A stretch of DNA of 64,000 bases from a virus (taxonomy: Duplodnaviria > Caudoviricetes), in IMG/VR virus record IMGVR_UViG_3300013383_000004, positions 32,756 to 96,755 of that record; one strand, given 5' to 3'. A program made the translations under genes and the position numbers. Of the stretch, positions 30,275 through 55,949 are shown piece after piece. The notes beneath the pieces are model-generated. The model was not told the origin of the DNA and did not search any database. It worked only from the letters and a program-made list of their open reading frames with translations. How positions within the stretch are numbered: the first letter of the stretch is position 1; every line of letters starts with the position of its first letter.

Positions 30275-33001
30275 ATGGCTTATAAAATTAATAAAGGAAA
30301 ATATAATAAATTATTAAGTTATAGAAATCGCTATTATAATTTAGGAGGTGATATTAATGAACTACCTCTGTTTTATCAATATGCGGATTCTAATGATAGT
30401 TTTATAGGAAATCCTATCTCTAATATATATCAAGGAGATAGTGCTACAGATGCTTTAGTACAACAAAATATAGTTCCCTCACCTCCTCCTTTACAAAGAG
30501 TAGATATTCCTAAACAACCTAATAAAACTCTTCAATCCCTTGAAGATATGTTTAACTCAGGAGCTTTAAATAATGCTGCTACTGCATTAGGAAGTATGGC
30601 AGGCAGTGGTATAGCAGGGGGTTTAGAAAGTGGAGCAGGTAGTGTTTTTAGTAGCCTAGGTAATATTGCAAGTACTATCCCTGGACCTTGGGGTGCTATC
30701 GCAGGAGCAGGACTTAATGTTATAGGAGGCCTTACTAATAGAATGTTTGGCTCTAAATTGAATCAAGAAAATATTAATGCTACTAATTCTACTATAAACA
30801 GACTTAATAATTTTCAATCAAATGCCAATAGCTTTGATACTTTAGCGGATATTTGGGGAAGTACAGCTTTAGGTACTAATTTCTCTGATAGTTATATAGG
30901 CAAAGATGGATGGTTCTCAAATAAGGCAAAAAATAAAGCTAAACAATTAAGAGAAAGGATGAATCTATCTAATGCCTTTGCTGAAAACTCATTACAAAAT
31001 AATGCTGACAATCTTACAGAAACTACAATGAACAATCTAGAAGCTAGTTATGCTGCTCTTGGGGGTCTCTTGAATCAATATGCTAATGGTGGTGGAATAC
31101 ATATAGACCCCAGAAATAAAGGTAAGTTCAATGCCACTAAAGAGAGAACAGGAAAAACTACAGAAGAGCTTACACATAGTAAGAATCCACTTACAAAAAA
31201 GAGAGCTATATTTGCTCAGAATGCAGCAAAGTGGCACCATGCTTTTGGTGGTGACTTAAACACTGCTGGTGCAGACTTTCCAACAGGACTTACATTTATT
31301 AATGAAGGAGGCACACATGAAAGTAATCCCTATGAAGGTGTTCCTATGGGTGTAGCTCCTGATGGTAAACCTAATTTAGTAGAAGAAGGAGAAGTAGTAT
31401 ATGATGACTATGTGTTTAGTAATAGACTTACTGTTCCTGATGCTGTTAGGTCTAAATATAAATTAAAAGGAAATAAAGATTTAACTTTTGCTGATGCAGT
31501 TAAACAACTTTCTAAAGGTGTTTCAGAGAGACCTAATGACCCAATAAGTCAAGAAACCCTGCATGAGATAATGTCTGACTTAGCACAAACACAAGAGGAA
31601 GTTAGAGAAGCTCAAACTGTAATTAATAAATACTCACATGGTGGTAAATTAGGCACCCTTCATGATGGAAAAGAAGCAGGATGGCAAGTACTAAATATGG
31701 ATAATAAGACTCCTAATATTACCTTTGGGGTAGAAGGCTTTAATCCTTATGACTCTCAAGGAAATATTGATTGGGATATAATGTATCGGAATGACAGCCC
31801 TTACATGAAAAGAAGGCAATATGTTATAGATAATTGGAATGATCCTAAAGTACAGCAATGGCTTCCTGAATATGTAAAGGAGATAAATAAATATAATGAA
31901 GGTAGAACAGGCTATACTCCAATGAAAGTATCTGACATTACACCTAAAGTATTTAGAGATAGAACTTTTGATAAGTCATGGGGAGCTATGCACGCCGGTA
32001 TTCTTAATGCAGAAGACGTTACTTTAAATAAAGCTAATAGATATTTTTTAAGAGGAAAAGATGCTCAAGGTAATCCTATTGTTACTCCATTAAATGCAAT
32101 TCCTTGGGAAGGATTAAATGATAAAGGTTTAACTTTTGAGCAAGCTTATCCTAACTATTCTTTTGTAGGCAAGCAGGAGAGGCCTAAAGAGGGTGATACT
32201 ATTTACACTGACTACTATTATGATGAAAATAAAAAGGAGAATAAAGAAAAAGAAAAACTTGACTTAGGAACTTCTGATGAAAGACTTAGGTATGCTCCTG
32301 TAGTAGGACTAGGATTAGCAAGTTTAAGTGATGCACTAGGATTGTCTAATAACCCTGATTATAATGAAGCATCAATGATAGAAGCTGCTACAAGAGGAGG
32401 CTCTTATATGCCTGTATCATGGAATCCTATTGGCAATAAACTTACTTATAGACCATTTGACAGAGACTATTATACCAATAAACTTAATGCAGAGTCTGGT
32501 GCTACAAGAAGAGCTTTAGCTAATCAAAGTGGTGGTAATAGTGGTAGAGCCATGGCAGGTATTCTTGCTGCTGATTACAATGCTCAGGATAAGTTAGGTG
32601 ATCTGTTCAGAAAGTCTGAGGAATATAATTTAGAACAAAGACAAAAAGTAGAGGACTTTAACAGAGCTACTAACCAAGCTAATTCTCAAGGTATGTTACA
32701 AGCTGATATGGCAAATCAACAAGCATATAATAGTACTAGAGATTTTAATCTTAGAGGTATAATGGCTGCTGCTGAGATGAGACAAAAAGCCAGACTTGCA
32801 GCAGAACAGGCTAAATCAGCTAATTTAAGTGGATTATTACAAGCACTTGGTGATATTGGCTATGAAAATAAGGGCATGAACATGATAAGAAGGCTTGCTG
32901 AAGCAGGTGTTATTGGAGGAATGTCAGAGGGTCATCCAATGTTTAATCTTTACACTACTCCAGCAAAAAATAAATCAAAGAAAAATTTAACAAAGAAATA
33001 A
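30275..33001 (+). CDS. virion cargo (ejection) protein 1-like
   Basis: G/A-rich hydrophobic segment, GGTHE.NP.EGV...NLVEEGEV motif, repeated aromatic-xx-GG motifs; follows muzzle. Confidence 0.7.
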   Translation: MAYKINKGKYNKLLSYRNRYYNLGGDINELPLFYQYADSNDSFIGNPISNIYQGDSATDALVQQNIVPSPPPLQRVDIPKQPNKTLQSLEDMFNSGALNNAATALGSMAGSGIAGGLESGAGSVFSSLGNIASTIPGPWGAIAGAGLNVIGGLTNRMFGSKLNQENINATNSTINRLNNFQSNANSFDTLADIWGSTALGTNFSDSYIGKDGWFSNKAKNKAKQLRERMNLSNAFAENSLQNNADNLTETTMNNLEASYAALGGLLNQYANGGGIHIDPRNKGKFNATKERTGKTTEELTHSKNPLTKKRAIFAQNAAKWHHAFGGDLNTAGADFPTGLTFINEGGTHESNPYEGVPMGVAPDGKPNLVEEGEVVYDDYVFSNRLTVPDAVRSKYKLKGNKDLTFADAVKQLSKGVSERPNDPISQETLHEIMSDLAQTQEEVREAQTVINKYSHGGKLGTLHDGKEAGWQVLNMDNKTPNITFGVEGFNPYDSQGNIDWDIMYRNDSPYMKRRQYVIDNWNDPKVQQWLPEYVKEINKYNEGRTGYTPMKVSDITPKVFRDRTFDKSWGAMHAGILNAEDVTLNKANRYFLRGKDAQGNPIVTPLNAIPWEGLNDKGLTFEQAYPNYSFVGKQERPKEGDTIYTDYYYDENKKENKEKEKLDLGTSDERLRYAPVVGLGLASLSDALGLSNNPDYNEASMIEAATRGGSYMPVSWNPIGNKLTYRPFDRDYYTNKLNAESGATRRALANQSGGNSGRAMAGILAADYNAQDKLGDLFRKSEEYNLEQRQKVEDFNRATNQANSQGMLQADMANQQAYNSTRDFNLRGIMAAAEMRQKARLAAEQAKSANLSGLLQALGDIGYENKGMNMIRRLAEAGVIGGMSEGHPMFNLYTTPAKNKSKKNLTKK

Positions 33002-45455: not shown

Positions 45456-48400
45456 TTAACAAAACTTTTTATATTCTTTATTTATTAACTCTTCATTAAA
45501 TTTAATACCCAAATCATTAAGTCTTTTCTTCATAAAATTTTTGACTTGTGATTCATAAGCTTTTTTATCACTTTCACTTTTATTCTTATAGTTTTGAATA
45601 GTTTTTTCAGCATCTTCATAAGTTCTACCATTCATCATGTAAATTCTATGTAGTAAATCTATCTGTTCTTGATTACTCATAGTAGAATTATCTGACTTTG
45701 CCTCTTCATTAACCAAAGAATTTTGAACTTCTGATTCTGTATTATCTTCTAATGTCTTAGTAGTAATTTCAAGAGGTTTCTTTATATCATTAGTACTAAT
45801 TTCTAGATAATCATGATTACTTCCCAAAGGACTAATTTCTTTGTATTCAATAGCATTATCTTTTAACAAGACTTGTTGATACAGTTTATAACCATCTTTT
45901 ACTTTCATTTTAAAATAAGGGGTATTCTGTAATTCTGTCACTTCCCCTTCTTTATAAACCTCAAAATTTCCATTTTCAAGTTTTGCCATTGTAGCCTTTT
46001 TTATAGGAACAAGTTTATTATTATCCCAGTTATTCCTAATAAACTGGTCCATAACTACTTCTGGAGAAGTGGTAGGAAGTACTCTAAAAGTATCAGTATA
46101 CCCGTCAATTCTTTCTTTAACGTATACAGGAACTAAGCTCATAAAGGATTTAGGAGAAAATCCTAATCCTGCCCTAAAGAAACAATATTTAAAGAGTTGC
46201 TTAGACAGCTCTGGATTCTCCTTATGTAAGTCAATCCAAGCGTTACCTAGTTTCTCTTTTTGAGCAGTATCAAGACCTGTAATTTCTATTTGAAGGGTTG
46301 CTCTTCCTGTCTTATCAGTACCATACTTAATAGATTGAATTAAGAAATTATCTTTATATTTTTTCTTATAGTCTTTCTTCATAAATTCTATAGGAAATTC
46401 TGAAATAGTTCTACTTAATTCCTTAGCATCTATTACATTTCCTGCAACAGCTAAATAAGACTGGTAAAAATCACTTAGACTACTAAGAATTTTTCTATCA
46501 TTAAGTATAGTGTTACCTAAAGGGGTTTCTCCAATATAATCAATAATATTCCTAAATCCTGTACTGTTAGCAGGCATATTACTAAATATTTCTCTAGCTA
46601 ATCCTAAAGTTCTATTAAATTGTTTTAATATAGGATGAGCATTAAAAATATCCATAATGCTAACTTCTTCTCCATAAGAATCAAGAATATTACTTTCTGA
46701 AGAGAGTTTATTTAACTTATATTCAGTAATGAGATTATCAACAATTAATGGGCCTACAGCACTACTAATAGAATTAAATCTAGTAGCAAAAGTAGGCATT
46801 CTCATGGCATCTGCTAATCTTTGAAAATTTCTAAATGCTTTAAGAGTTTTATACTCAATCCTTACATCATCAGATTTTAAGCCTTCAATTAATTGTTCTT
46901 TGGTTAAACCTTCCTCATTTAATACACTGTCTTCATTAATATCATGCTCTTTTTCTATTTCATTAATTCTTTCTTCTATCACCTTACTTAGAGAAGTAAA
47001 TCCTGTAATATTCTCACTACTAAATCTTTTAAGAATATCAGATACAGCTCTTTGAGATAAGAAAAGTGCAGCATCATCAAAAGGCATACCCATTCTTATA
47101 AGAGTATTAAGTATATTAGCAGTACTACTATTAATGTTCATTAAATTAAGTACAGGATCTTTAACAGCATCAGCAGCACTAGCAACTAAACTACCAAGCA
47201 CTTTACCTATAGATTGCCCTGTACTGTCTATCCTACCATCAATACTCATATTACTACCAAAGGTCATTCCTGCTACAGTAAATGGTTTTTCAATCATGCA
47301 AGCATTATCTACATTTACCATATAACCTTCATTTTCTATAACAGCATGAGCAATTCTATTAACTGCAAATATACCAATAAGAGAGCTGGCTGCACTGTTT
47401 TGTTTGTAAAACTGTACATGAGTATCTATGAACATAAGATTTTTATTTTTATTGCTTAAATCTTTCAGTTCATCAGTTGACATCTTACTTAATTCCTCGT
47501 AACTTTTATCTGTAGTTTTATATGCAGTTACAAGATAACCCATTCTTTTTTGAGGTTCAAAGCCTCCAGGATTTAGCATCTCAGCACAACTAGTTTCATG
47601 TGTTAATACTTCATAGGTCATGTCAACAATCTTATTGTTTCTATATATCCTTCCTTCTGTAGGCTTATTTACAGTAAAAGCATTTTGAATATATAATTTA
47701 AGAAGTCTATCATATGCACTACTAGGCATTGACATAAATCCTTGTGCAGCCCTTTGAGTCATGTATGTTTTATCAAAAGGATTATCAAGAAACATTTCAA
47801 TTAGTTCACTAAGTTGCTTTTTTGATTCATAACTTATTTCCTTACTTTGAGAGTTAGTTAAATCATCATAAAGTATCTTATGAAGGTTAGATCTACTGGT
47901 TTTTGTTCTAGAAATATCATAATCTTTTCTCATAAGATACATTTTGTCTACCATTTATACTTTATATTACTATAAAGATTAGACTATATCTTTACAAATA
48001 AATTGCAATGTGTATTTCCACATTTAAGTGTACTCACAGAGTTCTTCTTCTCCGTGTTAAATCATAAGTAATCTTATGTAACATAGATGGTACTTGTATT
48101 ACATAAGGTTTAACAATATCAATGAATTTTAATCCTTCTTTAGTACCACAACATAAAGAGTAACTATCTTCTTTTTTACCTTCATGGTACATATAAAAGT
48201 TTATATCCCACTGCTCTTTAAAGTAATTTATTATTGTTTGAACTTCTTGTTTAGGTTCACAAATACTTATTTTAATATAGAGACCACAAGGTCTTCCTTT
48301 GTCCTTTCTAATATTAATATGCCCATCATCCATATACCATATAGCTATCTCTCTAGCACTTAATCTATTTAAAAGCTTTCTATTACCAATTATCTTTTTT

Positions 48401-51400
48401 CCTTTATAAACTACTCTTCTAAGTACTTTAATAAAAGGAATTGTATTAAGCTGAGTATAATAAACAGGAACTCCTATATTAAATCCTTTAGTTTTTATAT
48501 AAGAATTAAGTCCATTATTTCTTATACCACAATTCTTTAATTGGTTAATTTTCCACTCTAGATAGTCTTTCTGTGCTTCACAATGAGCTATCTTGAATAC
48601 GTTGTTATTGCATATTGTTCCATCACCTAAAAGTAATCCAATTAATAAATTTCTACTTTCTTTGTTAAACTTTGTTTTCATAACGAGAATCCGTATGTTT
48701 AAATTATGATTTAATTAGTCGTTGAACCTTTTAGCATTTCAGCTAACTTGGCTGCTGATAACCCTTAGCATTACCTATTAGGGCTTCCCAGCAATTAACA
48801 CATTTTTACTTCAACATAGAATTTATCGAAATCACTACCTGTAAGCAATGTAATATCATTAGGAAGCATAATACCATCTCCTGCCTCTCTTGGCAAGAAT
48901 CCTACAATTTTCACAGGGGCCATTGAATACTTTGCTTCAGTAGGGATTCTATAACTAACCATCTTTAATAAGTCTGGATCAAGAGCTTCTATAGCTTCTA
49001 TACTAATATTACCATCTTTATCAGTGAATTGATTAAATAAATCATTAGTATAAATAGGAGCAAATGCTTCAAAGTAAGCAATACCTCCTTGATGTTCTTT
49101 TAAATATTCCTTATAAGATAGTGTGTTACTATTATTCTTTACCCCTTTATATTTAGCATTAAATTTATCAGATTGTGAAAGTTCTCTTTTAATAGGACTT
49201 TTCTCATACTCTTTTCTTGTTTTTAAGAGTCCTCCATTCTTATCTTTAAATCTAATATTAAGCTGTCTTGAAGTTCCAAAGTTAGTGACTTGTACAACAG
49301 GACCACCAGCTATTTCTTGTTTATTAACTCTGTTTTTAATTATAGAGTTGATAAGTTGTTCAATTCTCTTACTTTGAATTGGATCTCCAAGAGGTATTCT
49401 AAATCTTCCATCGGCATCAACAGAACAAGCCTGAAGCAAATCTATTCCATATCTAGGGCTAGATAGTATTTCTCTTTGTAGTATTTTACTTATAGCAATA
49501 TTTCTATCTTTAGCACTATAACTATCTAAATTAAGAGTTTCACTTAGTTCTGATATACTATTTTCAATATTATCAGCTATAGTTTGTTCATACTCTTTTT
49601 TAAACTCTTCAGCAGATAGTTTTTTACCTTCAACCTCATAAGTCACATCATTACCAAAACTATCTTTAGTAGCTAACTCAGAAGGTATAATATATCTAAT
49701 TTGAGAACCATGGGATTGCTCATGATCTTTAAAATGTTCCGGAACTTCTTGTTGTAAGCAATAGTCTTCAAAAGGTAATTCATGAACATAGGTTTGATTA
49801 TAATTTCCTGTTCTACTATTGATAATAGTTTCTTCGGTCTTGCCTGTTTCTGAATTAGTTGTTTGTATTGTTTTAGGAGATGTTTCATATAAACAAGCTT
49901 CTAATACAGCTTTTGCTTTAGCTTCCCCATTGGCATCATTAGCATACTTATTAATATTAATTCTACCCATCAAACCTGATTTTACAGTAGATTCAAATTG
50001 AACAGTATCAATACCATCTTTTTTGTAATTGCCATTCTCATCATAATGACTTTCTTCCATTACTTCGTAAATAGCTCTAAGAAGATTGGGCTTTCCTGTA
50101 TATTCATTTTGGAGAATAGCATCAGCCATTATAAGAAGGTATTCAGAATTTTTATTTTGCACTCCCATCTTTATAGTACTAAGAGGAGCATTAACAACAC
50201 CTGTTGGTTTTGATATTTGACTATATACAAAAGGCTTTAATGGTTGAAAAGCTATGCTTAAATCACTGTAGTTATAATTTCCTTTTCTTAGTTTTTGATA
50301 TACTTCTTCTGCTTTTTTATCCCACTTACCAAAGATAAAAGCCTTCTTTCTATAGGAAGTAGGACAAGAATATCCTTGTGCATCTGCTACATTTATATGT
50401 CTAAATGCTCCATCTTTTCCTACAAGGGATTCCTTTAGTACTCTATATCCAGCTTTCTCTGACTCAGGAGCTTCTGCTATCTTTCTATCAAAAACAATAG
50501 ATACATTATCTATAATGTTGGAAACAAAGTTATCCCAATCTTTAAGATAACAAGTTCTTTCTTTTCCATCAGAAACCCTTCTCCCCTCATAGTCTACAGC
50601 TTCTACATTACCTCTGATACCGGGAGCATGAATTTGAGCTAATCTTTTTTGTAAATCTTCAGCATCTTTATAAAAAGCAATGTCTGTTATAGTCATCTCC
50701 ATAATATTCATTGCAGCAAAAGTATCATTCCATACAAAATTCTCAAGATTAGCTATGATCTCTTCTTCTGTTTTACCTATGTCTGTTATCTCTTTTACTC
50801 CTTCTATAAGACCAGAATCTACCCATTCTTTTACTATTTTAGAGGCTCTATTGTCCATAGCTTCAAATATAGCTTCATTAGCAAGGGAGTACAATCTATT
50901 TTCATCTACTTCTTTTCCATGAATTTTATCACTGATAAGTTTTCCTAATTCACTGTTTTTATGATCTCCTATAAGATAATCATTCATAAAATCAAGGAAA
51001 CAGAATTTTCTTCCATTAGAATCAAAATTCTTTATAAACCTAGGATCTTTTTTATCAAGGTTTCTCATTAAAACAGTTTGGATTCTACTTAGTTCTTGGT
51101 TAAATATATCCATTAAACCATTAGTAATAGTTTCTTTATAATTAGACCCCCTTTCACTATAGAATCTTATAAATTCAGAAGACGGCTTATTAGACATCAT
51201 AGGCACTCTAAACCATGCTGGGACTCTTGATTGTTTACTATTAGCACTTTCTGAGAAATATTCTGTTAATATAGAAAGTGTGTATTCCATATCATTCATA
51301 TTTCTCATATAGTTATGCTGATTGAAATTAAGTTGAACTTTATGCTTGAATACTTCTCTAGCTTTACTGTCTGTAGCTAAAGTTCTGAGCCAGCTGTTTC

Positions 51401-54400
51401 TCCAACCTCTTTCAATATCATTGCCTGTATGAAACCAATCAAAATTACCATATTCACTCATTATAAAGGTATCAAAAGATTCTCCTGATTGATTAAATTT
51501 AATCATTAATTTAGATAGATAAGAAGGAGTAATATAGCTTTGATACATTTTTCCACTATCATAAAAAGCAGATACAGCAATATCTTCTAAAGATTCAGTG
51601 ATAGGGGTTAAAAACTCTCTTACATTACCATTTATACTGCCTTGTGCTTTAAATGTAAAAGGCTCATAAGTAGCATTATCAAGATTATTTTTAAGAGATT
51701 TTATCATGTAAGTCAGAGCACTGTACATCCTTTTATAGTTATCAAGAGTTAGATTACTTTTAACCATATCAGGAGTTACATAGTAACCAAGTAGATTAGA
51801 GATATATCCTAATATTTTAGCTGCTTCATTCTTATTTTTTTCTTGAGATAAATCATTATCTGTGTGGTTAAATTTATCTAAGCTTTCATAGGCTTTTTGT
51901 AGTTCATTAAAGGCTGTTTTATTAATTCCTTCTGAAGTGAATAAAGGATGCTCTCCAATTTTATATTGGGTAGTAACTTGTGACATAGCCTCTTTAAGAG
52001 CAGGATGTTCATTTACTTGGATGCTTTTATATTTTCCACCATCTTTTATTACAACAGAGTAAGGTTGAAAGTGCTTACAAAAAGTTCCATAAAACTGTCC
52101 TTGAAAATCTGTTTCTTTGCCAGAAGTATCAGATAATCTATCTATAATTTGTTTTACCCAAGGATTATCTGTTTGTTTTTCTTGTAATTTAACTATCATA
52201 TCAGCCAAACTTAAAGAACCCTGTGTCCACCTAAGAATAGAATTAGTAGCTTCTCTTACATTAATTCTCTCATATATCCCAAATTCTGATTGAACTTTAT
52301 TACCATTACTATCTAATTTATAGCACTTTAATAAGGCTCTTTTAATCATCTGAGACATAGTCCCTAATACATCTTGACATCTAGATTCAATTTGCCAATG
52401 CTCTTGTAGGCTTCCTTCTGTCTCTTCTACATCTGCTTGGTCATTAGATTCATTAAAATTATCAACATCCCCTATTATATTTTCATTAACTTCAGTAGCC
52501 TTGCCATCTTGTGTAGAAATAATACTGAAATCTTCTAAGTTAAGGAGTGTATCTTGTGCAAGAAGCATAATAGCCTTCCAATTATCTGTAATAGCAGTAG
52601 CTTTATCTATAGTATCATAATTATCAAAATCATTGTGCTCAGGAGAGAATTTTTGTCTACACATTTCTATTATGTTATTTACTCCTATAGTTCTAACTAC
52701 ATCAGCTCTAGACATGGAGGAAAAGTCTTTATTAGTACCATCTGTATTCTTAAACCTATCACCATAAATAGTTTTAGCTAACTCTGGATTCTCTTGTAAT
52801 TCAGTAATATGGTCTGAAATCCAATATACTGCTTGTTCAGCTATATGCCTTATTTCTGTTGCAGAAAGAAGGTCATTATCTAATAAATCATCAATTTGAT
52901 GCATTGTTTCTTCTTGTTTTGATATATATAAATCTTGTTTATTACTCTCTTGTGTGTCTTCTGTAATTTCTGTTTCAGCAGTATCTTCAGAATACTCTTT
53001 CTCTATTTTAAGCATAGTTCTAGTTTGCATAAGAAGCCTTGGAAACTCTTTGCCCCATTTACTTTTATCTTGAGTATGAGTTAATTCTGCATCTCCTGTC
53101 TCAAGTAATCTTATAACTGCCTGTTTATTTTGAGAGAAACTATCTAAAATTAATTGTCCCATTAAAGGGGAGCTGACTTTATCCCATGCTTTTGTATCTA
53201 AGTCTCTAATTTTTCTACCTATAGCTCTGGCTGTAGCTCCATCTGCTTGCTCTAAACTTTTTAAAATATTTGTTTTCTCAGTTTCTGACATACTACTATA
53301 CCCTAATTTTTGAGCTTGAAAAGCCCCTTCAACAGTTTTGAAATGCCCCTCTATAAATACTTTAAAATTACCTGTATTTTTTGCATAAAAAGGTCTTTCA
53401 GCAAAATTACTCAAATCAGCATTTTCACCAGTACCTGCATAAATATTAATAGTTTTATCTGAGGAACTAGGAGCATAATATATATTAACACCATATAGTC
53501 TCTCATATTCTTCTACAGCATCATATAAACTCATAGTACCATCAAGAACTTGTTTATAAAGACTTGAGTCTCTAATTTCAAGAATGTCTAATAGATATTC
53601 ATCTTGTTCTCTTAGTTCTTGCTCTATAGCTTCTTGCTCTTCTCTTAATAGTTCTTCATAGGAAATCTGTTCTGCATATTCCTTTTCTAAAGCTTCTATT
53701 CTTTGCTGTTCCCTAAGTTCAGCATTTTTCTTCCTAGTAGCATTTCTTTTATTGATAGTCTCTTGAGTTACTTTTCTATTAACTTCCCACCCATTAAACT
53801 TATAGTTATATTTACCTATTTTTAGTAAACTCTCATAACCACGTATTTTATCCTCTGCTATTTTCTTTCCTTCGTCAGTATTTGATGTATGGATTATATA
53901 TTTAGTAGAAGTAAGACTGCCCTTTTTATACATCTTAACTCCATATGGGTCACTTCTTTGAGCTTCCACTAAATTATCAATAACTAAACTAGGATAACCT
54001 GATTTACTTTGTGTTGAGTTACCCTTTTCAGAAACTTCATTATGAAATCTGTTTAATTCTATTAAGCTGCTCTCAAGTATAGATCCTTTAATATTAAGAC
54101 CAAAGTTCTTATTAAAAAGACGAGCTATAGTATCAATAATACTGTGAAGTATAGATCTATTAGCTTTAGGATCTTTATACTTAGCTAATTCTCTTTGCAG
54201 TTTTTGATTAGAAATTATATCAGAAGCAAATTCATCAAGACTATTTTTGAAATAAGTAAGACCTGAGTCATTATTATCTTTAAGTGCATTTTTTGCTAAG
54301 TCCCATAACCTACTCATTTCATTATAGAATCTAACCTCCTCTTTTGTTCCTCTTCCTGCTTCAACTTTCCTAAAAGTTGAGATTGTTACAGAATGTTCTA

Positions 54401-55073
54401 ACTCATGGTGTATTTTAGCCTTAAAGAGAGTATCTGATGCTCCTTTTACATGTTTCCATTGAGCCATATTTTCAATAAGAGAAGGTAGAAACAGAGTTAC
54501 CTCAAACTGGTTTGCTTCTGCTACTGATTCTCCTTTAGTATAGGGATTAACTTTAATACTATTAGTAGCATTAATATATGGGACTCCAATCCTTTCTAGA
54601 ACTTGAACTGTGCTGTTTAATAGAATATCTCTATTACTTTGACTATTAGCATTTCTCAACTCATAAAACATTCCTTGATTTAAATTTACTGGAATGAATG
54701 AAGGTCTTCCAACTTGTACTGCAATAGAACCATCCTTTAATTCCACAGTATTGACTGAATCTCTTCCATATATAGATATGGCTTTATCTAGGTATTCATT
54801 TAGAGCTGAATCATTTGTTGAGAATATGTGTGGTTTTAAATACTTTTCTAACCACAAAGTTACCCTATTATCTTCTTTATAATTAGATAAAGAAGCTTCA
54901 AATGGTTTAGGGCTTAGTTCTGATATAATCTCAGATGCTGTAGGATAAGCTCTTCCTTCTAGAGTTCCCTCATTTAGTTTTTTATGTAGCACCATTTCAA
55001 GTGTTCCCGAAGCTATGTCTAAACTATTTAAAAGGGATTTAAATTCTTTTGAACTTGTATTAACACAACTCAT
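45456..55073 (-). CDS. virion RNA polymerase polyprotein, spliced (exons 55073-48825 and 47951-45456); 2914 aa
   Basis: Motifs ED..KR, DAQGY, KPF, K.S, SAVK-like STVK, YRIPTE; splicing restores the catalytic TGSDFD|VDK (DxDxD); C-terminal D..KDP.L..MN.N motif in exon 2. Confidence 0.9.
47952..48824 (-). mobile_element. group I intron in virion RNAP (873 nt)
   Basis: Minus strand: P1 UUCGAU|A...UGUUGAA; P10 UCUAU/GUAGA; core AAUUGCUGGGAA, UAUCAGCAGCC, GGUUCAACGACUA, AAGAUAUAGUCU; terminal G at 47952. Confidence 0.93.
48034..48681 (-). CDS. LAGLIDADG (two-motif, family 2) homing endonuclease
   Basis: LLIGLLLGDG and IAIWYMDDG motifs; H...Q.DYLEWK. Confidence 0.9.
   Translation of the reverse strand: MKTKFNKESRNLLIGLLLGDGTICNNNVFKIAHCEAQKDYLEWKINQLKNCGIRNNGLNSYIKTKGFNIGVPVYYTQLNTIPFIKVLRRVVYKGKKIIGNRKLLNRLSAREIAIWYMDDGHINIRKDKGRPCGLYIKISICEPKQEVQTIINYFKEQWDINFYMYHEGKKEDSYSLCCGTKEGLKFIDIVKPYVIQVPSMLHKITYDLTRRRRTL
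53005..53455 (-). other. NADAR (YbiA-like) domain within virion RNAP
   Basis: LSNFAERPF, FKTVEGAFQAQK, ARAIGRK, W, LLETG..L, D..KWG..F..LLM..R pattern; boundaries approximate. Confidence 0.75.
54050..54620 (-). other. zincin-like (HExxH) metallopeptidase-like domain within virion RNAP
   Basis: IHHELEH followed by Y...SLDEF.S....N..LQ..L; boundaries approximate. Confidence 0.55.
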
Positions 55074-55099: not shown

Positions 55100-55130
55100 C
55101 AAAGTTATATAAAAATACTTACTATACCAA
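55100..55130 (-). promoter_or_regulatory. sigmaA-type promoter for RNAP operon
   Basis: Minus strand TTG (55130-28), 20-nt spacer, TAACTTTG (55107-55100). Confidence 0.75.
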
Positions 55131-55161
55131 ATGAATAAAAGAAAATGTTAAGAGTTATAAC

Positions 55162-55196
55162 AAAAAAAATAAGGGAAGAGCCAGTTACTCTTCCCT
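55162..55196 (-). terminator. intrinsic terminator ending the accessory operon
   Basis: AGGGAAGAG/CTCTTCCCT 9-bp stem followed on the minus strand by a U-run. Confidence 0.75.
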
Positions 55197-55207
55197 ATAT
55201 TAAAATT

Positions 55208-55318
55208 TTACTTTTTTTGACTTCCAGGCCTTGTGCCTGCATTTTTACTCTGTTGATCCATTTTGTCGTAAAAATCAATACGACCCTTCAATTTATTAAT
55301 TTTATTCTTGTATTTCAT
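55208..55318 (-). CDS. 36-aa basic peptide (not in ORF track)
   Basis: MKYKNKINKLKGRIDFYDKMDQQSKNAGTRPGSQKK; overlaps the upstream gene end and stops just before the terminator. Confidence 0.55.
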   Translation of the reverse strand: MKYKNKINKLKGRIDFYDKMDQQSKNAGTRPGSQKK

Positions 55319-55529
55319 AATCCTTTACTGTAAAAGTATCTCCTAATTCATAGTCTTCTACCCTATAACTGTCAATGATTAAATTTTCATCTCTAATCCA
55401 TTCAAACTGTTCTTCTAATGAAAGAGACTTAAATTCTTTATATTCCTCATCATTAAGGATAAGTTCAATATGGCCATTTCTAAGAAATCCTTGAACATAT
55501 TCACAATTACATATTATCTTCTTCGCCAT
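55302..55529 (-). CDS. hypothetical protein
   Basis: 75-aa ORF in a tightly overlapping operon. Confidence 0.6.
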   Translation of the reverse strand: MAKKIICNCEYVQGFLRNGHIELILNDEEYKEFKSLSLEEQFEWIRDENLIIDSYRVEDYELGDTFTVKDYEIQE

Positions 55530-55740
55530 TAATTTGATTTTTAAGAGATTTAAGAAGTTCTTCTCCTTTTTCTGTTATTACATAATGTGAATTAGAAAGC
55601 TCCTCAATGTCATTAAGAACTTTCATAAAGGCGTTACCGTCCCCTTTATTAATAAATTCACCCATATCCAATTCTTTACACTCAATATAGATTCCCTTAT
55701 CAAAGAAATGTAATGTTGCTGAAATTTTTTCTCCTGTCAT
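55507..55740 (-). CDS. hypothetical protein
   Basis: 77-aa ORF with overlapping start/stop. Confidence 0.6.
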   Translation of the reverse strand: MTGEKISATLHFFDKGIYIECKELDMGEFINKGDGNAFMKVLNDIEELSNSHYVITEKGEELLKSLKNQINGEEDNM

Positions 55741-55949
55741 ACCTTTTTAAATTGGTTATAAGTATGATTTTTAATAATAGGCTTATTATTTTGTTTATTT
55801 AATTTAGGAGTACCGTCATCATTAAGAATAAGAATTTTACAGAAAGAATTTCTTACTTCTTTAATTAACCCAATACAACCTAAATCATCAGAATGGGAGA
55901 AAAGAATTTTTACTTTCTCCCCTTCTTTATAGTTTTTATAATTTTTCAT
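55737..55949 (-). CDS. hypothetical protein (KOW/SH3-like)
   Basis: GEKVKI......G..G.I.EV pattern. Confidence 0.5.
   Translation of the reverse strand: MKNYKNYKEGEKVKILFSHSDDLGCIGLIKEVRNSFCKILILNDDGTPKLNKQNNKPIIKNHTYNQFKKV

Follow-up and report, generated by a model that had tools for sequence, protein, structure and literature searches.

Enzymes of the NADAR family, gp30.3 of phage T4 included, hydrolyse ADP-ribosyl (ADPr)-guanine and not ADPr-thymidine (PMC11543638, PMC11125620, PMC11825919), and some of them also reverse ADPr-cytidine. Free phage NADARs, named AdfN, defeat the DarTG1 defence system (PMC11825919, published 2025), and the packaging of phage NADARs in virions was predicted, in general form, in 2022, with small ADPr-derived signals favoured as their targets (Iyer et al. 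2022, PMC9503650). Here we describe a NADAR domain that is part of the predicted virion RNA polymerase subunit of a gut crAss-like phage. The DNA analysed, called the window below, is a stretch of 64,000 nucleotides (nt), positions 32,756 to 96,755 of the IMG/VR record IMGVR_UViG_3300013383_000004. The whole record, of 96.8 kb, is a complete crAss-like phage with terminal repeats. Positions are those of the window, and all features located in it lie on the minus strand. The reading that we favour, with a probability of about 55%, is that the domain serves as a co-injected, de-ribosylating counter-defence, its target being left broad.

The NADAR domain and its carrier protein

The domain lies in the 2092-aa product of an open reading frame (ORF; 48795-55073), which is a homologue of gp50 of crAss001 ('putative RNA polymerase'), the subunit with the DxDxD motif. 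Identity to gp50 is approximately 30% over 90% of the core, and by this homology the carrier is the crAss virion RNA polymerase subunit. The closest named relative is cr116_1 (Steigviridae, Pamirivirus), with 81% nucleotide identity across the gene. Strong identity to the cr116_1 protein restarts at aa 705, where the first exon of the polymerase core begins (48825-52961, aa 705-2083, 82% identical to cr116_1, C-terminal end GSDFD). A sequence search of the PDB returned no match for the whole protein, for the 832-aa ORF or for the 1280-aa ORF, so that sequence comparison did not connect the protein with the phi14:2 gp66 structure.

The initial annotation of this DNA had proposed a NADAR-like domain at 53005-53455. 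Its limits were one base out of frame at both ends, the in-frame limits being 53004-53456 (aa 540-690 of the gp50-like protein), and the proposal itself was confirmed. Pfam family PF08719 (NADAR) matched aa 551-675 with 49.9 bits (E 5.6e-13; 54.3 bits in the genome scan), the curated cut-off of the family being 35.1 bits, and PHROG 1017 was a second family match. A profile built from 43 relatives found E. coli YbiA with an E value of 1.1e-13 and the P. nicotianae NADAR (8BAU) with 1.6e-9. The AlphaFold2 (AF2) model of the domain had a mean confidence (pLDDT) of 95.8 and a predicted template modelling (pTM) score of 0.90. Compared by Foldseek, as the initial annotation had suggested for YbiA, the model matched solely NADAR structures (YbiA 2B3W, TM score 0.71; 8BAU, 0.68). 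In an all-against-all VIA search of 48,161 chains the Z scores were 16.4 for 8BAU, 13.9 for YbiA and 9.1 for 8BAT of G. lovleyi, and the next best chain scored 3.6. The AF2 model and the Foldseek and VIA comparisons all display the YbiA fold, with its five core helices and small flanking sheets, and the assignment to NADAR is far beyond chance.

The conserved motifs named at the outset are all present: TVEG (E582), QAQK (K589), AIGRK (G619) and DKSKWG (D669, W673). E582 (codon 53328-53330) corresponds to the catalytic E88 of the E. coli C7 enzyme and E43 of the P. nicotianae enzyme, and K589 (codon 53307-53309), seven residues further on, to K95 and K50; the catalytic roles of these residues in NADARs have been described (PMC11543638). 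A third residue, H666 (codon 53076-53078), is placed by the model at the end of the last strand. All three were invariant in 146 of 146 full-length relatives, as were ~30 further positions. We take the invariance of the triad in so many relatives as an argument for a selected enzyme. That the domain is catalytically dead and acts as a spacer or a structural module is hardly credible in view of this conservation, which extends over relatives that have diverged.

The last-strand position distinguishes NADAR subfamilies: it is Glu in YbiA, Asp in DarG1 and other DarT1-linked NADARs, and His in T4 gp30.3/AdfN-T4. The L-x-H of our domain falls in the same register as L-x-E of YbiA and 8BAU, and as VLKHS of T4 gp30.3; this register is likely rather than certain, since HMMER sets a gap at that point. 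Position 663, the equivalent of the Asp (D171), is not conserved among the relatives (T in 70, E in 40 and I in 15). Because position 663 varies and H666 does not, the domain is likely a NADAR of the His type, as T4 gp30.3/AdfN. Overall similarity to gp30.3 is marginal (84% probability in hhalign, over 54 columns of the N-terminal half only), and T4-like phages were absent among the matches listed when the domain was compared with phage records by tblastn.

Comparison with the relative P0314 revealed what amounts to an empty site. P0314 has the same core and an N-terminal module 77% identical to ours (aa 1-538), but no NADAR, its N-terminal module running directly into the core. The pairwise alignment contains a single clean indel after YAPSSS, from aa 539 to ~700. 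Judged from this alignment, the NADAR is a discrete cassette of ~160 aa, inserted in frame between the N-terminal module and the core. The cassette (52983-53459; aa 539 to ~697-700) comprises the NADAR domain and a short acidic tail, and its right edge is fuzzy within the linker. The acidic linkers noted on the two sides of the domain were confirmed: aa 440-538 contain 24 acidic (D+E) versus 13 basic (K+R) residues, and the linker between cassette and core (52884-53003, aa 691-730) contains 14 versus 3.

The N-terminal module, as defined by the alignment, occupies 53460-55073. It has no Pfam family, and nothing real appeared even at E<=10; two 'large polyvalent protein' domains, LPD1 and LPD23, were weak atlas leads that Pfam did not support. 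AF2 modelling of aa 1-538 from a 30-row alignment failed (pLDDT 45). The module carries a HELxH motif (H223, E224, H227; 54393-54407), which is invariant in the alignment, and it could be a zincin-like peptidase. A long helix of ~75 residues (aa 428-501) runs from the module into the cassette.

Presence or absence of the NADAR across crAss polymerases, a comparison which the initial annotation had called for, turned out to be variable. With hmmsearch run to E<=10, not one NADAR was found in the 119 relatives closest in the core (82-84% identity over aa 1130-1700). Upstream of the core, 54 of the 119 carried ART-PolyVal, whose definition comes from injected polyvalent proteins; a few had DUF7831 with ART-PolyVal and cpYpsA, and one an HD domain. 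In cr116_1 (L001:9001-12360) the region upstream of the core contains ART-PolyVal (aa 248-376) and two HExxH stretches, and a phrog_2072 domain with the motif FVFGSNxxGxHGAGAA sits immediately before the core. The same region of close relatives is thus occupied by NADAR, ART-PolyVal, DUF7831 plus cpYpsA, HD or phrog_2072 domains. With several apparently swappable effector domains, the carrier has the hallmark by which polyvalent proteins are recognised.

The nearest NADAR sequences, 60-66% identical to ours, belong to other crAss lineages. There the domain is found upstream of the core, at aa 49, 77, 102, 231, 362, 453 or 602, or, in a second architecture, ~1000 aa downstream of DxDxD, between cpYpsA SLOG and superfamily 1 (SF1) helicase domains. 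It thus occupies many positions, on either side of a DxDxD motif that belongs to the same polypeptide. In a library of 1.84 billion proteins, 687 clusters matched at E<=1e-3, of which 409 reached E<=1e-10. The domain recurs in giant crAss proteins: the best 150 hits included 145 full-length domains, and 71 of these were in proteins of at least 2000 aa. Named carriers are cr126_1, cr130_1 and cr131_1, the first of which is labelled 'DUF1768 domain-containing protein' in GenBank. NADARs of the crAss type (41-53% identical) were also seen on contigs of metagenome-assembled genomes labelled Dehalococcoidia, Pseudomonadales, Bacilli, Clostridia and Saccharibacteria (L008-L015); these are probably phage contigs caught in the bins.

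The distribution of ART-PolyVal raises the question whether the eraser counters ADP-ribosyltransferases (ARTs) that competing sister phages inject. Of the closest relatives listed, about half have ART-PolyVal upstream of the core, and a NADAR is found in this lineage only, as such an inter-phage conflict would lead one to expect. We nevertheless consider it very improbable, for we know of no NADAR that acts on protein-linked ADPr. The predicted substrates of the ARTs in polyvalent proteins are proteins rather than bases (PMC5512222).

Probable delivery and possible targets of the domain

In crAss001, gp47, gp49 and gp50 were detected in virions by mass spectrometry (PMC10172136). Because gp50 was among them, we infer, by homology, that the polymerase with its NADAR is packaged and delivered with the DNA. 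According to the co-injection reading, the cassette would be synthesised as part of the polymerase, packaged into the capsid and carried into the cell along with the DNA. There it would free the bases of the phage nucleic acid of ADP-ribose, or of some related ribosyl adduct, before the phage genes are expressed, and a host defence acting by modification of nucleic acids would thereby be blunted. That the domain is active, stays attached and is delivered, as well as what it acts on, are parts of this proposal that we infer. Action on the single-stranded DNA of the transcription bubble, which the initial annotation had imagined, is pure conjecture.

The initial annotation had singled out DarT1 as the toxin to be counteracted and recommended a look at the DarTG1 content of the hosts. 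We surveyed 401 evenly drawn Bacteroidota genomes, one per species; the sample is phylum-wide, not confined to gut Bacteroidales, and as defence systems vary between strains, one genome per species limits what it can reveal. DarT was found in 34 of the 401 genomes, and all 18 partners examined were macro domain proteins, as in the thymidine-type DarTG2. NADAR was also found in 34 genomes, never beside a DarT hit. DarT1 was thus not found in the genomes searched, which is not to say that it is absent. DarT1 might have escaped the DarT model, but the reverse search, started from the NADAR loci, equally failed to find a DarT neighbour, with the limitation that it rested on the same DarT model. 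No DarT-like gene was seen among the genes next to the polymerase ORF in the annotated cr116_1 genome; the genome of the phage itself was not searched with the DarT model. Thus the recommended survey lent no support to DarT1, and the target of the eraser in these hosts is probably not classical DarT1. One of the DarT loci (L038:2144-3803) had an N-terminal extension of ~138 aa and was paired with a macro protein of 226 aa, the usual size of DarG being ~345 aa.

Another partner emerged from the same genomes. Five of the ten non-YbiA NADAR loci were directly downstream of a PRTase-CE gene. In these loci (L042, L043, L044, L046 and L047) a PRTase-CE gene (PF24390, ~350-380 aa) is followed by a NADAR gene (~170-280 aa), an arrangement resembling DS-32, a PRTase plus NADAR system validated as anti-phage in E. 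coli; in a further genome (G025) the NADAR is next to a PRTase-CE remnant. The crAss domain might then be an orphan antitoxin against a ribosyl-transfer toxin of Bacteroidota other than DarT, such as that of the DS-32-like PRTase-CE-NADAR pairs. The frequency of PRTase-CE (above its cut-off in 30 of the 401 genomes), its adjacency to half of these NADARs, the protection of E. coli by DS-32 and the lack of a DarT1-type pair in the survey speak for such a role. We still regard it as unlikely: the crAss NADAR profile matched the PRTase-linked NADARs weakly (E 1e-6 to 1e-9), those that aligned at the distinguishing position carry Glu, not His, and the survey was not specific for the gut.

It is also conceivable that the injected NADAR degrades small immune signals or toxins derived from NAD or ADP-ribose, such as variants of cyclic ADP-ribose (cADPR), rather than DNA adducts. 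Iyer et al. (2022, PMC9503650) argue that most NADAR, Macro and SLOG domains of phages have such small signals as targets, and cpYpsA SLOG domains flank the NADAR in other lineages of crAss phages. However, each NADAR tested, including T4 gp30.3, hydrolyses ADPr-guanine on DNA, activity of a NADAR on cyclic ADP-ribose was not reported in the literature searched, and our phage has no SLOG partner. We therefore hold this alternative to be rather unlikely.

Several observations weigh against the co-injected counter-defence that we prefer. The first is the survey itself, with no DarT-NADAR pair and 18 macro-type partners out of 18. Moreover, T4 gp30.3, the other His-type NADAR, failed to rescue DarT1 toxicity outside infection (PMC11125620, PMC11825919). 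Elsewhere in the phage genome no match to ART-PolyVal, Macro or cpYpsA was found, therefore the context gives no hint of the substrate. gp50 of crAss001, the protein that was detected in virions, itself lacks a NADAR, only a few copies of the polymerase per virion are to be expected, and the extension, which has the invariant HELxH upstream of the cassette, may be cleaved.

A more specific version combines several of these observations. The space between the N-terminal module and the core would be a hot-swap bay, in which near-identical sister phages load opposite ADP-ribosylation tools, many of them ART-PolyVal writers and this lineage a NADAR eraser; in Bacteroidota the eraser would be aimed not at DarT1 but at some other ribosyl-transfer toxin, for example PRTase-CE of the DS-32-like type, and the polymerase would carry the orphan antitoxin. 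We mention it as a speculation that probably does not hold in this full form.

Structure and expression of the polymerase gene

The polymerase gene is interrupted by a predicted group I intron of 873 nt (47952-48824), located within the DxDxD codons and recognised by partial hits to Rfam Intron_gpI (E 3e-6 and 4.5e-5). A LAGLIDADG ORF (48034-48681) lies inside it. Past GSDFD, the end of the first exon, the ORF runs on for eight residues; the large ORF that follows begins with M-VDKMY. The corresponding sequence of crAss001 gp50 is GSDFDVDKLY, without interruption, and P0314 is also continuous across the junction. The exons are predicted to join at 48825|47951; the 5' splice site is preceded by U, and the intron ends in G. 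Splicing at these sites, if it occurs as predicted, restores an intact DxDxD motif (DFD|VD) and joins the core to a second exon of ~831 aa (45456-47951). An equivalent small ORF is present at the same place in cr116_1 and cr131_1.

Upstream of the gene (55100-55196) there is a terminator-like hairpin (55196-55172) followed by TAACTTTG (55107-55100). Five of the 10 bp in the stem of the hairpin are GC pairs, a T8 tail follows, and three terminator-like sites were found versus 0.3 expected. Before it, three back-to-back ORFs of 75, 77 and 70 aa (55302-55949), without assigned function, end the upstream operon. The TAACTTTG box is 27 nt upstream of the ATG; as a single motif match it is a weak indication of a promoter, and TAnnTTTG, sought at a fixed distance before ATG codons, occurred 2 times versus 1.7 expected, which is uninformative. 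The arrangement suggests that the gene is a separate, probably late transcription unit.

Late transcription has been reported for the cargo genes of crAss001, and it fits also with a role in the producing cell, in which the NADAR would act late, for example by cleaning progeny DNA before packaging, or would be cleaved off during maturation and never delivered. The position of the gene after the hairpin, the invariant HELxH and the lack of peptide support for the extension are in line with this alternative. We consider it quite unlikely, because the NADAR invariably forms part of a virion cargo protein, in one of many positions, and is rarely free-standing; in addition, the protein contains no cleavage-like motif of the aromatic-x-x-GG kind.

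Comparison with known systems

Among the viruses of the human gut, crAss-like phages rank first in abundance, and their ways of evading the defences of Bacteroidales are little understood. If the co-injected counter-defence is real, the enzyme would enter the cell ready-made on the polymerase and be at work before the phage genes are read, the one moment at which ordinary counter-defences encoded by early genes cannot act. The pair of phages with and without the cassette, together with the transferase-bearing sisters, offers a direct experimental handle, and, after the host survey, the target is better sought among other ribosyl-transfer toxins than in DarT1.

The initial annotation had considered this the best candidate for an undescribed system, which is true in part. 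The specific crAss polymerase fusion and its behaviour as a cassette were not described in the literature that we searched for NADAR and crAss, and the text of Yutin 2021 mentions neither NADAR nor DUF1768. On the other hand, the function class and the idea of delivery are already published (AdfN in 2025, the general prediction in PMC9503650), and databases label homologues as NADAR or DUF1768.

It is instructive to compare the domain with the AdfN proteins (T4 gp30.3, AdfN-Bas32 and AdfN-Bas60; PMC11825919, PMC11125620). Both are phage NADARs expected to be nucleic-acid ADP-ribosylglycohydrolases engaged in counter-defence, and with gp30.3 our domain shares His at the distinguishing position. 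Whereas AdfN is small, free and made after infection, here the NADAR is a cassette in a ~2900-aa virion polymerase subunit; its similarity to gp30.3 is marginal, and DarT1 was not found in the sample of the host phylum. NADARs of the DarG1/BC4488 type (PMC11543638) have the same fold, Glu and Lys. Unlike them, the crAss domain has no conserved acid at the D171 equivalent (position 663), no N-terminal extension and, in the annotated cr116_1, no adjacent DarT, and its Z score was 9.1 to the G. lovleyi NADAR versus 16.4 and 13.9 to the generic and YbiA types.

With regard to architecture, the closest parallels are the polyvalent proteins, including the ART fused to the N4-like virion RNA polymerase (Iyer et al. 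2017, PMC5512222), and T4 Alt. They are large virion-delivered proteins with swappable enzyme domains that are predicted to act during injection, as proposed here for the carrier, and sisters of our phage carry ART-PolyVal; the carrier, however, is the crAss two-barrel polymerase and not of the N4 or MuF type, and NADAR is not mentioned in PMC5512222. The NADAR, Macro and Nudix domains predicted to be packaged (PMC9503650) would likewise be ADPr enzymes located in the head and deployed early. The phage NADARs treated there are typically stand-alone, occur mostly in myoviruses and are thought to act on small molecules, and crAss phages are not mentioned. The same paper describes animal RNA viruses whose polyproteins contain a NADAR beside the RNA-dependent RNA polymerase, thus here too a NADAR and a viral polymerase share one polypeptide, although the polymerases and the hosts are unrelated and a translated polyprotein differs from packaged cargo. 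To these systems our analysis adds the crAss polymerase fusion with its empty-site comparator, the contrast between transferase and eraser within one genus, and a host-phylum survey that argues against DarT1.

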